Source: a virus (taxonomy: Duplodnaviria > Heunggongvirae > Uroviricota > Caudoviricetes). From it: a stretch of DNA of 5,554 nt. Each line of letters begins with the position of its first letter. Position 1 is the stretch's first letter. Positions 800 through 5,089 of this stretch are shown here, one piece after another. The translations under genes were made by a program, and so were the position numbers. The DNA lies in the IMG/VR virus record IMGVR_UViG_2698536506_000004; one strand, given 5' to 3'. The notes beneath the pieces were generated by a model. It saw only the letters and a list, made by a program, of their open reading frames with translations. It did no database searches and had not been told where the DNA came from.

Positions 800-1006
800 A
801 TGAAGTACTATGTTCACACTCTTACAGATAATCAGAACGATCATGAGGTTCATACAGAAACATGTTTTCGACTTCCTGATGCAAACAATCGTAAAGAGCT
901 TGGAGAGTTTAGCTCATGTGAGCCGGCAGTGAAGGCCGCAAAAAATCTGGGTTACACGAGGGTGAATGGATGTTACTGGTGCTGCAGAGATTGCCATACA
1001 TCCTGA
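800..1006 (+). CDS. Hypothetical small cysteine-rich protein (68 aa), moron-like
   Basis: ATG 800 preceded by AAGGAG (786-791) at 8-nt spacing; stop TGA 1004-1006; followed by an intrinsic terminator. Product MKYYVHTLTDNQNDHEVHTETCFRLPDANNRKELGEFSSCEPAVKAAKNLGYTRVNGCYWCCRDCHTS has Cys at 22, 40, 58, 61, 62, 65 and His at 6, 15, 18, 66; no TM segment. The ORF-track entry from 752 uses an upstream TTG lacking an RBS. Family not recognised. Confidence 0.6.
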   Translation: MKYYVHTLTDNQNDHEVHTETCFRLPDANNRKELGEFSSCEPAVKAAKNLGYTRVNGCYWCCRDCHTS

Positions 1007-1032
1007 CATAAGGTGTGAATAATTCTGACAAA

Positions 1033-1057
1033 GGTCGCTTCGGCGGCCTTTTTTATT
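1033..1057 (+). terminator. Rho-independent terminator (UUCG tetraloop hairpin + U-tract)
   Basis: GGTCGC (1033-1038) / TTCG loop (1039-1042) / GCGGCC (1043-1048) gives a 6-bp stem with one G-U pair, immediately followed by TTTTTTATT (1049-1057). It sits 27 nt after the stop of the 800-1006 gene. Confidence 0.72.
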
Positions 1058-1085
1058 ACTCAAAAACGAAAGAACGGAGGTACGT

Positions 1086-1367
1086 ATGTACGCACTCAAG
1101 AAAATCACGGTAACAGAAGACGGTCGTCATGTTGAGGAAGTGCATGTCCTGGGGGATATGTACCGCCTGGAGTTCTATCCGCGTAACACTCATCTTGCAG
1201 CGAAGATTGAGTATTGCCGGGACGGGAATATTCCGTGCATTCCTGTAGAAAAAGAGGATGAAGCCTACATCATCACACTGAACGGTGACACGGCGCGTTG
1301 TATCTGTCGTGGCGACAGTGAAGCCCGGAATGAAATAGCAAGATGTCGCGCCCATACAGATAAATAA
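1086..1367 (+). CDS. Hypothetical small protein (93 aa), moron-like
   Basis: ATG 1086 preceded by GGAGG (1076-1080) at 5-nt spacing; stop TAA 1365-1367; followed by an intrinsic terminator. Product MYALKKITVTEDGRHVEEVHVLGDMYRLEFYPRNTHLAAKIEYCRDGNIPCIPVEKEDEAYIITLNGDTARCICRGDSEARNEIARCRAHTDK; Cys at 44, 51, 72, 74, 87; no TM segment. Family not recognised. Confidence 0.6.
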   Translation: MYALKKITVTEDGRHVEEVHVLGDMYRLEFYPRNTHLAAKIEYCRDGNIPCIPVEKEDEAYIITLNGDTARCICRGDSEARNEIARCRAHTDK

Positions 1368-1377
1368 AAAGCAAAAA

Positions 1378-1409
1378 CCCCGGCTGCGGGAACAGTTCGG
1401 GGTTTTCTG
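1378..1409 (+). terminator. Rho-independent terminator, possibly bidirectional
   Basis: CCCCG (1378-1382) pairs with CGGGG (1398-1402), with an inner CTG/CAG stem (1384-1386 / 1393-1395) around a 6-nt loop, followed by TTTTCTGTTTCTG (1403-1415). An A-rich run (1361-1377) upstream would give a U-tract for the minus strand as well. Confidence 0.65.
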
Positions 1410-1438: not shown

Positions 1439-1621
1439 ATGGAGAAGTATAAACGAATTCTGTTGAGGTTGACTATGAAAAACGGCCTTGAATTGAAAGC
1501 GCCTGTAACTGATGACATCAGCAGAGCGGTGGCTTTTGCCATTAAGTGGGTGGCGGTCGGCATCGCCGTGTCTCCGATGCTGTATGGGATGGCAAAGTTG
1601 ATTGTTGCTCTGAAATCGTGA
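1439..1621 (+). CDS. Hypothetical small membrane protein (60 aa; C-terminal TM helix); alternative start ATG 1475 (48 aa)
   Basis: ATG 1439 preceded by AAGG/GGGAGA (1429-1436); the internal ATG 1475 also has GAGG (1465-1468) at 6-nt spacing. Stop TGA 1619-1621. Product MEKYKRILLRLTMKNGLELKAPVTDDISRAVAFAIKWVAVGIAVSPMLYGMAKLIVALKS: a basic amphipathic N-terminus and a single hydrophobic segment (about residues 30-57) ending 3 residues before the C-terminus. Confidence 0.5.
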   Translation: MEKYKRILLRLTMKNGLELKAPVTDDISRAVAFAIKWVAVGIAVSPMLYGMAKLIVALKS

Positions 1622-1629
1622 GTGGTGAT

Positions 1630-1812
1630 ATGACGCGAAAACACTGGACACACAGAATGCCGCGAACGGCGGCGAAATGGGCACTGGTAGCGATACTGGT
1701 GCCTTTTTTATTGTCGGGATGCGTCAGCCTGGATAGGGCGCGTCAGCTTTTGGATGCTGCCTCTCAGGTCTGTGAAATTGTCAATGGTGTCCGGCAGTGT
1801 ATGCAGAACTGA
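1630..1812 (+). CDS. Hypothetical small lipoprotein (60 aa precursor; lipobox LSGC); alternative start ATG 1657
   Basis: ATG 1630 lies 8 nt after the stop of the preceding gene, suggesting translational coupling; the SD is weak (GGTGA 1624-1628). Product MTRKHWTHRMPRTAAKWALVAILVPFLLSGCVSLDRARQLLDAASQVCEIVNGVRQCMQN: basic n-region, hydrophobic core WALVAILVPFLL and lipobox L-S-G-C, giving a ~30-aa mature peptide with four Cys including the lipidated one. Stop TGA 1810-1812. Confidence 0.55.
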   Translation: MTRKHWTHRMPRTAAKWALVAILVPFLLSGCVSLDRARQLLDAASQVCEIVNGVRQCMQN

Positions 1813-2439: not shown

Positions 2440-2988
2440 ATGAAGGTTAATAAAAAGAAGCTCGCGGAAATTTTCAACGTGGATCCACGAACGATTGAAC
2501 GCTGGCAGTCTCAGGGGCTCTCTTGTGTCTCTGGTGGTAGTAAGGGGGTTGAATCTGTATTTGATACCGCCATGGCAATTCAGTGGTATGCGCAACGCGA
2601 AGCCGATATTGAAAACGAAAAACTCCGCAAAGAGACCGAGGATTTGCGTGCGGCTGCGGAATCAGATTTACAACCCGGCACCATTGACTATGAACGCTAC
2701 CGACTCACAAAAGCACAGGCTGATGCACAGGAACTGAAAAATGCCCGCGAAGAAGGGCTGGTACTGGAAACGGAATTGTTTACCTTCATTCTGCAACGTG
2801 TGGCACAGGAGATTTCGGGGATACTTGTACGTGTGCCGCTGACATTACAGCGTAAATATCCGGATATTTCACCGTCACACCTTGATGTGGTGAAAACTGA
2901 AATCGCAAAAGCCTCCAACGTTGCAGCTAAAGCTGGTGAGAACGTAGGCGGGTGGATTGATGATTTCAGACGCACAGAAGGCAGCTAA
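2440..2988 (+). CDS. nu1: Terminase small subunit (lambda gpNu1 homolog)
   Basis: Product [41 protein letters not shown]...[28 protein letters not shown]... is closely similar to lambda Nu1 (MEVNKKQLADIFGASIRTIQNWQEQGMPVLRGGGKGNEVLY...[28 protein letters not shown]..., from memory); 182 aa against 181 in lambda. Stop TAA 2986-2988. The ORF-track start at 2422 is an over-extension into cosB. Confidence 0.93.
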
Positions 2989-4876
2989 TGCAGCCGGTGC
3001 GATAGCAACAGGGCTTGTATCTCTCAATATTCCGGTACCACTGACGACAGTTCAGTGGGCTGATCAGCATTATTATCTGCCAAAAGAGTCTTCATATACT
3101 CCCGGGCAATGGGAAACACTGCCGTTTCAGGTTGCCATCATGAACAGCATGGGGAATGACCGGATCCGCACCGTTAATCTGATTAAATCGGCGCGTGTTG
3201 GTTACACCAAAATGCTGTTGGGGGTGGAGGCTTATTTTATTGAACACAAATCCCGTAACAGCCTGCTTTTTCAGCCGACAGATTCTGCGGCAGAAGATTT
3301 TATGAAATCCCATGTCGAACCAACGATAAGAGACGTTCCTGTATTACTGGAGCTGGCTCCGTGGTTTGGCAGAAAACATCGGGACAACACGCTTACCCTG
3401 AAACGTTTCTCCTCCGGTGTGGGATTCTGGTGTCTGGGCGGAGCTGCTGCCAAAAACTACCGTGAAAAATCTGTGGATGTGGTCTGCTATGACGAACTCT
3501 CCTCGTTTGAACCGGATGTGGAAAAAGAAGGTTCACCAACTCTGCTTGGCGATAAGCGTATCGAAGGTTCGGTATGGCCTAAATCCATACGCGGCTCAAC
3601 GCCCAAAATTAAAGGTTTTTGCCAGATTGAAAAAGCCGCGAACGAATCTGCACATTTTATGCGGTTTTATGTGCCATGCCCTCATTGTGGTGAAGCCCAG
3701 TATCTGAAGTTTGGCGATGATGCGACAACCTTTGGCCTGAAATGGGAGAAGGGCAAGCCGGAGACGGTGTATTACCTGTGTGAACATAATGGCTGCGTGA
3801 TCCGTCAGTCGGAACTTGACCAGACCGACGGGCGGTGGATTTGTGACAATACCGGGATGTGGACGCGTGACGGTCTGACATTTTACAGCGCCGGTGATGA
3901 GGAAATCCCGCCACCGCGCTCAATCTCGTACCACATCTGGACGGCATACAGCCCGTTCACCACCTGGGTACAGATTGTTTATGACTGGCTTGATGCACTG
4001 AAGGATCCGAATGGCGTCAAGACGTTCATTAACACCACGCTGGGGGAGCCTTATGAAGAGGCTGTGGCAAAAAAACTGAGCTTTGAGTTGTTGCTGGAAA
4101 AAGTCTGCCACTATGATGCGCAGGTTCCCCTGCGGGTGGTTTACCTGACCGCAGGGATTGACTCTCAGAAAAACCGTTATGAGATTTATGTCTGGGGCTG
4201 GGCTCCTGGCGAAGAAGCTTTTCTGATTGACAAGCAGATCATCATGGGGAGACCGGAAGATGAGGACACCCTTAAACGCGTTGATGCCGTGATCCGGAAA
4301 AAATACCGTCATGCAGATGGCACTGAAATTTCCATTTCCCGCGTCTGCTGGGATACCGGTGGTATTGACCAGGACATTGTGTATCAGCGATCCAGAAAAC
4401 ACGGCACTTTTTTTGTGCTCCCCATCAAAGGGGCGTCGGTGTACGGCAAGCCGGTGATCACCATGCCAAAAAAGCGAAACCAGCGTGGGGTGTTTTTGTG
4501 TGAGGTGGGTTCCGATACCGTCAAGGAAATGCTGTATGCGCGTTTTGCCCTGCCGGTGGTATCTGCCAGTGAAGTCGCACCGTATACCTTCCGTTTTCCG
4601 GATAACCCGGACATTTTTTCTGATGTTGAAGCTAAACAACTCGTGGCAGAAGAGCTGGTTGAAAAAGTTGTGAACGGGCGGGTGAAACTCCAGTGGGATG
4701 CCAGAAAACGGCGTAATGAAGCTCTGGACTGTCTGGTGTATGCCTATGCAGCGCTGCGCATTTCCGTTCAGCGGTGGCAACTGGATCTGGATGCACTGGC
4801 CCGCGCCAGAAGAGATGAACAGGACGACGATGAAATGACTATTGAAGAAATCGCGGCTGCTCTGAGTGGAGGATAA
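2960..4876 (+). CDS. A: Terminase large subunit (lambda gpA homolog; ATPase/endonuclease)
   Basis: ATG 2960 (GGTGG 2951-2955 upstream; the TTG at 2957 is an ORF-caller alternative), overlapping the Nu1 3' end by 29 nt as in lambda. The product is colinear with lambda gpA over its whole length, for example [27 protein letters not shown] against lambda VEWADANYYLPKESAYQEGRWETLPFQ, and the Walker-A-like KSARVGYTK at 3185-3211. Stop TAA 4874-4876; 638 aa against 641 in lambda. Confidence 0.95.
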
Positions 4877-4879
4877 GTG

Positions 4880-5089
4880 ATGATTTATACGCATGAAATG
4901 CTATGCGATGCCCGCCGGGCGTTACATGAACTGATGATCGGACGTGCTGTGGTTTCCGTCAGCAAGGACGGGCGTCAGGTTCAGTATTCGCGGGCGACAA
5001 TTGGTGAACTGCGTCAGTATATTGAAGAGCTGGAAAGTGCGCTGGGTGTATCCGGACGGCGTCGTGGCCCGGCAGGAGTGGGGCTGTGA
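4880..5089 (+). CDS. W: Head completion / head-tail joining protein (lambda gpW homolog)
   Basis: ATG 4880 preceded by GGAGG (4868-4872) at 7-nt spacing; GTG 4877 is an alternative. Product MIYTHEMLCDARRALHELMIGRAVVSVSKDGRQVQYSRATIGELRQYIEELESALGVSGRRRGPAGVGL resembles lambda gpW ([68 protein letters not shown], from memory). Stop TGA 5087-5089. Confidence 0.85.
   Translation: MIYTHEMLCDARRALHELMIGRAVVSVSKDGRQVQYSRATIGELRQYIEELESALGVSGRRRGPAGVGL

Follow-up and report, generated by a model that had tools for sequence, protein, structure and literature searches.

A reading frame of 93 codons (ORF93), lying between two terminator-like hairpins in the late genes of a prophage, raises the question of what kind of unit it belongs to: a moron serving the lysogen, a part of the lysis module, a cysteine-dependent protein, a chance open frame, or a cargo gene that moves with its terminators. 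We addressed this question in a window of 5,554 nucleotides, the whole stretch of DNA analyzed here, from a Caudoviricetes record (IMG/VR IMGVR_UViG_2698536506_000004). This DNA represents the late region of a lambdoid (lambda-like) E. coli prophage. Positions 721-2440 share 99.9% identity with E. coli strain C5, in which the annotated order is Q antiterminator, OmpC, methyltransferase, tRNA, two holins, GH108 endolysin, a region of small genes, the small and large subunits of terminase, a head-tail joining protein, and the portal. A run of N at 374-680 (307 bases) covers most of the GH108 endolysin gene, which is identified by its unmasked ends and by the near-identical C5 locus. The features of the window are as follows.

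41-217: holin C-terminus (PF05449)
228-710: GH108 endolysin, with the masked N run inside
800-1006, plus strand: ORF68, PHROG 4298, function unknown
1030-1057, plus strand: hairpin 1 and its U-run, intrinsic-terminator-like, putative 5' boundary of the cassette
1058-1085, plus strand: leader with the Shine-Dalgarno sequence GGAGG (1076-1080)
1086-1367, plus strand: ORF93 coding sequence, 93 amino acids, PHROG 33497, function unknown
1369-1413, strand unspecified: hairpin 2 and its U-rich tail, terminator-like, putative 3' boundary of the cassette
1439-1621, plus strand: 60-codon gene
1630-1812, plus strand: 60-codon gene (lipoprotein)
1975-2196: ORF73
2440-2988: terS
2957-4876: terL
4877-5089: gpW-like gene
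From about 5089: portal

The ORF93 gene and its protein family

By the sequence and the list of open reading frames, ORF93 runs from an ATG at 1086 to a TAA at 1365-1367, and its GGAGG stands 5 nt from the start codon; the frame of 93 codons and the good Shine-Dalgarno sequence that the earlier note had described are both present. The acidic bias reported there also exists but is only mild (17 D+E against 14 K+R; pI 5.77). ORF93 matches the profile of PHROG 33497 with an E value of 3.4e-49 (166 bits, residues 1-92 on positions 1-94 of 95) and is a full-length member of that family, which carries no functional annotation. A word-indexed search of 5.8 billion proteins returned 31 close relatives from Escherichia, Salmonella, Edwardsiella, Proteus, and Providencia, every one of them named 'hypothetical', while a profile searched exhaustively against 1.84 billion cluster representatives matched just 20 and revealed no distant annotated relatives. 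Searches of loci added Xenorhabdus and one Aeromonadaceae MAG. The family is real, very small, and confined to temperate phages of the Enterobacterales and that single MAG.

The description of the product as an unrecognised protein holds for every characterised family in Pfam, NCBIfam, PADLOC, and the PDB searched by sequence. Scans of Pfam and NCBIfam gave nothing (the sole Pfam line, DUF2963 at E 0.15, is well under the cut-off), the PADLOC-DB models of anti-phage defence gave 0 families at E <= 1, and the PDB gave a single match at E 0.91. The literature on phiSTEC1575-Stx2k, the one sequenced phage with an ORF93 homologue, yielded no functional data.

A frame that is short, has never been named, and carries a pseudogene label in strain C5 could be spurious, with a terminator pair or an RNA being conserved instead of a protein. 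We consider this explanation extremely improbable, given how the frame has evolved. Among 26 distinct alleles of 279 nt (302 pairs), the median dN/dS is 0.125 (range 0.04-0.49); the reading frame and its N-terminal MYALK are retained between genera at 38-56% protein identity, with the Shine-Dalgarno sequence at a constant distance from the start; the AlphaFold2 (AF2) fold is confident; and no Rfam family attains its gathering score in this DNA. ORF93 is a genuine coding gene under purifying selection. Its invariant residues in an alignment of 24 sequences are M1, Y2, A3, L4, G23, Y26, and A39, and its leader is conserved in the E. coli group as CTCAAAAA(A)CGAAAGAACGGAGGTACGTATG.

The gene is nevertheless dispensable, as judged from its presence in 87 of 5426 complete E. 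coli genomes (the flanking sequence is found in 1005) and from damaged copies: about 10 of the 103 loci that we collected with an intact or damaged homologue contain a frameshifted or truncated one. ORF93 decays readily within resident prophages. The copy in E. coli C5 (L001, 6366-6646) has a deletion of one base and is called a frameshifted pseudogene by PGAP, and a truncated copy of 33 codons is found in seven viral loci. In E. coli R1, RM13745, and K99B, the ORF93 DNA is 100% identical to that of the window.

From the 24-sequence alignment, AlphaFold2 predicts a seven-strand antiparallel beta sheet (residues 4-74) and a C-terminal helix (residues 78-91) with a pLDDT of 90.6 and a pTM of 0.74; the helix is missing from the shorter Proteus and Providencia forms. 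A Foldseek search of BFVD matched uncharacterised phage proteins of about 90 residues alone, at a TM of about 0.6, leaving a confidently predicted fold with no informative structural relative. Polyubiquitin, which a profile search of the PDB returned at E 2e-7, was rejected: 0 stretches pass alone, the score being a sum of weak scores over tandem repeats, a single ubiquitin is unmatched, and the predicted fold is not ubiquitin-like. The sequence contains neither a signal peptide nor a transmembrane segment, and for want of a signal peptide the protein is predicted to be cytoplasmic, where disulphides are unlikely. With no catalytic or metal-binding signature, ORF93 most likely acts by binding a macromolecule. 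Our default, held with low confidence, is a binding protein that, late in infection, could act on some component of the host or phage.

Cysteines of ORF93 and the neighboring ORF68

The five cysteines to which the earlier note drew attention, in the pattern C-x6-C ... C-x-C ... C, are all present in ORF93, at residues 44, 51, 72, 74, and 87. So many in 93 residues, all of them retained inside the closest E. coli/Salmonella clade, could suggest a metal-binding or redox protein that depends on them. Across the family, however, the weight placed on these residues is lost: alignments of 20 and 24 members contain no conserved cysteine column, and among the invariant and near-invariant columns of 24 sequences there is neither a Cys nor a His. 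Elsewhere in the family C44 is replaced by S, F, T, or A, C51 by S, N, H, or A, and C72 by R, A, H, V, or T; C74 is S in Proteus and Providencia, and C87 falls within the C-terminal helix that many members lack. The pattern is a trait of the E. coli/Salmonella clade only, and a pattern limited to one clade cannot define the mechanism of the family. Because no cysteine is conserved family-wide, we reject a metal or disulphide motif, and, the protein also being predicted to be cytoplasmic, we regard a cysteine-dependent function as very improbable. This corrects the tempting reading that a Cys-rich protein must bind metal.

The earlier note had also raised the possible relatedness of ORF93 to the other Cys-rich protein, ORF68, and had called for a profile comparison. 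The two are unrelated. BLASTP gave no alignment between them at E <= 100, profile-profile alignment (hhalign) gave a probability of 0.2%, and they match different PHROGs (33497 and 4298), which rules out membership in one family. ORF68 is likely a small zinc-binding protein and, of the two, is the better candidate for zinc binding. Its invariant His and Cys residues in homologues from E. coli, Edwardsiella, the Aeromonad MAG, and Proteus are H18, C22, C40, C58, C61, C65, and H66. In RefSeq, no feature is annotated at ORF68 in any of the 14 E. coli genome matches listed.

Co-occurrence of the two genes is partial. ORF68 lies directly 5' of the ORF93 homologue in 23 of the 103 loci, which cover E. 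coli, Edwardsiella, the Aeromonad MAG, and Proteus, and 3' of it in 2; in the complete E. coli genomes, on the other hand, ORF68 is found in just 14, as against the 87 with ORF93. The two are frequent but not obligate neighbors.

Terminator-like hairpins and the limits of the unit

Hairpin 1 has the stem GGTCGC/GCGGCC (arms 1033-1038 and 1043-1048) around a UUCG loop (1039-1042), an A:U extension (1030-1032 with 1049-1051), and a T-run at 1049-1054 followed by ATT to 1057. It was picked up by a terminator scan and folds with a dG of -14 kcal/mol (z -4.35), equalled by 0 of 200 shuffles. Of 40 distinct upstream sequences, 39 have a terminator-like hairpin with a T-run 25-40 nt 5' of the ATG, against 14 of 200 shuffles (7%); counted by locus, 94 of the 95 loci with an intact gene have one. 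The stem occurs in the variants GGTCGC/GCGGCC, CCTCGC/GCGGGG, GATCGC/GCGGTC, and GGTCAC/GTGGCC. In 23 distinct sequences 92.6% of cells are paired, and four of the nine pairs are altered on both sides (17 cells); 0 of 500 shuffles reached this paired fraction or the covariation score, and slid registers of the alignment gave just 26-74% pairing. Hairpin 1 is conserved as a structure, and its stem covaries.

The 25-nt motif of hairpin 1, GGTCRCTTNGGYGGCCTTTTTTATT, is not peculiar to this gene. It occurs in at least 120 viral contigs, ahead of dozens of different genes, and among the matches listed MYALK genes follow it in only 4. With 1024-1066 as the query, BLASTN matched the motif in 215 phage records, some of them from virulent FelixO1-like phages, and the record of phage wV8 labels it 'terminator'. 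With its GC stem, UUCG tetraloop, and U-run, hairpin 1 is best described as a putative generic strong terminator, not specific to ORF93. Its ubiquity would fit a shared joint of short homology and convergence on an optimal terminator equally well. The form GGTCRC-TTNG-GYGGCC-T6-ATT is widespread in phages of many genera (window 1030-1057; loci L105-L224), immediately ahead of many unrelated genes, which points either to a mobile terminator that these phages share or to strong convergence.

Downstream of the gene, hairpin 2 (1369-1412) has the core CCCCGG...CGGGG followed by TTTTCTGTTTC. It folds on the plus strand with a dG of -20.7 kcal/mol (z -3.87, about -3.9; 0 of 200 shuffles equal) and on the minus strand with a dG of -19.6 (z -3.6). 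The simple scan called a terminator on the minus strand, at 1391-1378, and missed the plus strand because of a bulge and a long loop. The symmetry of the A-run and U-run and the near-equal fold on the minus strand make the hairpin look bidirectional. A hairpin is present 3' of the stop codon in 40 of 48 distinct sequences, as against 29 of 240 shuffles (12%), and a terminator-like one in 85 of the 95 loci with an intact gene. Its structure is retained, with differing sequences, in E. coli, Edwardsiella, the Aeromonad MAG, Proteus, and Xenorhabdus. For both hairpins the evidence for termination is computational and comparative, and it gives good support to the single-gene unit with a putative terminator on either side that the earlier note had proposed.

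The minus strand of hairpin 2 also resembles the terminator hairpin of sar, the antisense RNA of the P22 immI 'ant moron' (RF00262), sharing its ACUGUUCCCGCAG core. The Rfam match, on the minus strand at 1370-1454, scores 23.1 bits against a gathering threshold of 43 (E 0.33 in the whole window, 0.01 in a sub-search of 171 nt). Membership in the sar family was rejected, as the score is under the threshold, the 5' hairpin is poorly matched, and there is an insertion of 22 nt. A minus-strand promoter-like site, TAGTCA-18-TATACT, extends from 1475 to 1446, upstream of hairpin 2 on that strand, and phiSTEC1575-Stx2k has a similar minus-strand site (10/12) in the corresponding downstream region. 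It is possible that 1366-1475 on the minus strand encodes a two-hairpin RNA of about 70 nt, antisense to the ribosome-binding site of the gene at 1439; the promoter-like hexamers may be fortuitous, as they are sited in coding sequence.

The genes that flank ORF93 vary widely over the 103 loci, while its orientation is that of the late genes in every one. The gene occupies either the gap between the Q antiterminator and holin genes or that between endolysin and terminase. In Proteus the order is Q antiterminator, ORF93 homologue, holin; in Xenorhabdus the 3' end of a tRNA gene is directly 5' of the homologue and a Q gene lies within 1.5 kb. In E. coli and Edwardsiella, ORF93 follows an M15 or GH108 endolysin and precedes the two 60-codon genes, terS, or an Rz-like gene, as in the arrangement endolysin, ORF93 homologue, Nu1 of Edwardsiella and in phage phiSTEC1575-Stx2k, where the homologue follows an M15 endolysin. 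When the window was compared with each locus by BLASTN, the left end of homology fell at 1025-1046 in 78 of 98 loci, and most of the other 20 have an ORF68 homologue directly upstream; among loci of the E. coli group, 35 have the right end at 1387-1415. Since homology ends inside the hairpins, the mobile unit would comprise approximately 1030-1413: terminator, leader, gene, and terminator. Neighbors that differ by locus and breakpoints inside the hairpins indicate that ORF93 is an 'extra' gene, shuffled horizontally as a unit between phages.

Two loci show such joints within the lipoprotein gene. In L032 the ORF93 leader is joined at CCTTTTTTATTG to a hairpin inside this gene (window 1679-1713), suggesting that an intragenic terminator-like element served as a recombination joint; in L033 an ORF68-ORF93 pair lies inside the gene, and the downstream joint is within hairpin 2. 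The element at 1679-1713 on the plus strand of the window is an 11-bp hairpin followed by TTTTTTATTG, in the region of the lipoprotein coding sequence that specifies the signal peptide. Elsewhere in L032 (3889-3970), the start of the lipoprotein gene overlaps the stop of the GH108 endolysin as ATGA.

Expression of the unit and competing explanations

A consensus scan found no plus-strand sigma-70 site of at least 9/12 in 700-1100. The sole plus-strand candidate of a lenient 8/12 scan, CATACA-17-AATAAT at 995-1023, is placed ahead of hairpin 1, so that transcription from it would terminate at once. The 34 nt between hairpin 1 and the ATG hold the Shine-Dalgarno sequence and leave no room for a sigma-70 promoter; consensus scans, which a weak or non-sigma-70 promoter overlapping hairpin 1 could escape, found no promoter of the gene's own in this gap or in 1007-1085.

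These observations bear on the classic moron layout that the earlier note had seen here. Morons as defined by Juhala and Hendrix (see PMC3594210) have a layout that demands a promoter of their own (PMC3594210). Part of the proposal stands: ORF93 is a single extra gene followed by a terminator and is patchily distributed among otherwise related prophages, with variable neighbors. A classical moron, that is, an autonomous unit expressed from the repressed prophage and benefiting the lysogen through lysogenic conversion or superinfection exclusion, would account for these traits, and this part of lambdoid genomes often hosts morons (PMC3594210, PMC2629481). The remainder of the proposal fails: the scans place no promoter between hairpin 1 and the start codon, the terminator ahead of the gene is conserved with it in 94 of 95 loci, and the GC content of ORF93 (0.489) is at the level of its neighbors (0.475-0.537). 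Many exclusion proteins, moreover, carry a signal peptide or a transmembrane segment, and ORF93 has neither. We therefore judge a classical moron to be unlikely; the missing promoter and the conserved front terminator point to a promoter-less cassette and not to a self-transcribed moron. It is similarly improbable that ORF93 is a lysis accessory, a cytoplasmic protein regulating when the holin or endolysin acts and a functional part of the lysis cassette. ORF93 does adjoin lysis genes in all five genera: the holins follow it in Proteus and Xenorhabdus, and the endolysin immediately precedes it in E. coli, Edwardsiella, and the Aeromonad MAG. Its place in the window is downstream of the endolysin and ahead of two small membrane or lipoprotein genes that resemble part of the lysis module. 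The interval from Q to terminase is short, however, so any gene there adjoins lysis genes. The position of ORF93 relative to holin and endolysin varies, it is found with at least three endolysin types (GH108, M15, and Phage_lysozyme), it is absent from most prophages with the same flanking genes, and in L032 and L033 it has been inserted into the lipoprotein gene. The data allow, but do not call for, a link to lysis.

The best explanation overall, and one that we consider probable, is that 1030-1413 is a self-contained, promoter-less accessory cassette in the Q-antiterminated late operon of an E. coli lambdoid prophage. In order, the cassette would comprise a first terminator, a short leader carrying the Shine-Dalgarno sequence, the 93-residue gene, and a second terminator, all co-directional within the Q-dependent operon. 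Q-modified RNA polymerase reads past terminators in lambdoid late operons, and it is on this behavior that our model of expression is based. With a strong terminator 34 nt ahead and no promoter of its own, ORF93 would be silent in the lysogen and made only during lytic growth, when Q-modified polymerase passes the terminators; late operons are switched on by Q antitermination (PMC2629481). The hairpins could insulate the unit and, being short sequences common to many phage genes, could also be the joints for its cut-and-paste recombination; as a counterpoint, the hairpin-1 sequence at joints may reflect convergence and not a role in recombination. The protein encoded by ORF93 would be soluble and cytoplasmic, a beta-sheet protein that binds a host or phage macromolecule late in infection, perhaps as a dispensable fitness or counter-defence factor; its five cysteines are lineage-specific and would play no part in its mechanism.

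The promoter-less cassette shares traits with several known systems. Like lambdoid morons, examples of which are HK97 gene 15 and lambda bor and lom, the ORF93 unit is extra DNA present in some related phages and absent from others, a single small non-structural gene that moves horizontally and is followed by a factor-independent terminator. It differs from them in having no promoter of its own, in including the preceding terminator within the unit, and in showing no GC anomaly; given these differences, expression from the repressed prophage, which is the point of a classical moron, is not expected. A second comparison is with the PR'/Q-dependent cargo of Stx phages, stx in the slot between Q and holin, which is reported to be co-transcribed with the late genes (PMC8065619). 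ORF93 is likewise co-directional with the late genes and downstream of terminators passed only by Q-modified polymerase, its Proteus homologue occupies the stx slot from Q to holin, and a homologue is present in the Stx2k phage phiSTEC1575; unlike stx, it has no toxin function or other recognisable function and no signal peptide, and in E. coli it follows the endolysin and does not precede the holin. The promoter-early stem-loop (PeSL) cassettes of virulent T4-type phages (Arbiol et al. 2010, PMC2839356) are also small non-essential genes between short conserved terminator stem-loops, with rearrangement breakpoints at the stem-loops, where recombination is our reading for ORF93 as well. PeSLs, however, combine a strong sigma-70 promoter with the stem-loop, whereas the ORF93 unit has just a terminator and a Shine-Dalgarno sequence, and promoter scans found no strong early sigma-70 promoter in or beside hairpin 1; PeSLs reside in virulent T4-like genomes, the ORF93 unit in a temperate lambdoid late operon.

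A broader reading joins these elements, and we offer it tentatively, as it is more likely wrong than right. The unit would be one of many promoter-less mini-cassettes of terminator, Shine-Dalgarno sequence, and small gene, shuffled in the Q-dependent late operons of enterobacterial temperate phages by recombination at a shared terminator of about 25 nt (GGTCRC-UUNG-GYGGCC-U6-AUU), a lambdoid counterpart of PeSLs. ORF93 itself would act late to inhibit some host factor, such as a defence system triggered by late proteins, and would have a beta-meander fold with no solved relative.

ORF93 is an uncharacterised phage accessory gene of an ordinary type, and the practical value of the result is modest. 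A frame that was never named, and that some genomes leave unannotated or call a pseudogene, is a genuine phage gene under selection; its fold is confidently predicted, and it is a clean candidate for functional screens (counter-defence, lysis timing, toxicity). The unit provides a well-documented case of a terminator that stands ahead of a gene and belongs to the segment that moves. Cassettes of this kind are probably silent in the lysogen and expressed only under Q antitermination, with their terminators marking mosaic joints, which is relevant to the annotation of prophage accessory genes and to their classing as 'morons'.

Further observations concern the lysis neighbors and the Proteus loci. 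The window contains no Rz/Rz1 spanin recognisable by Pfam. The 60-residue protein of 1439-1621 has a hydrophobic C-terminal stretch that, by eye, is likely membrane-spanning, and that of 1630-1812, also of 60 residues, is a lipoprotein with the lipobox LLSGC and a weak match to an Rz-like spanin PHROG (E 0.043). These two products may form the outer-membrane-disruption part of the lysis cassette, and the ORF68 and ORF93 cassettes may have been inserted into or beside that part. About 50 nt separate the Q stop codon from hairpin 1 in the Proteus loci, where the hairpin comes just 3' of an extended -10-like element, TGgTATATT (by eye). Hairpin 1 may act there as the late promoter's tR'-type terminator, in which case the ORF93 homologue would be the first late gene of these loci. 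In Proteus prophages (L002, 6248-6420, and similar), the homologue is followed by a second hairpin of the same type (AAGGTCATTTCGGTGGCCTTTTTTATTGGAGAAAATATG), which runs straight into a further tiny reading frame of 44 codons, so that units of terminator, Shine-Dalgarno sequence, and small gene stand there in series.
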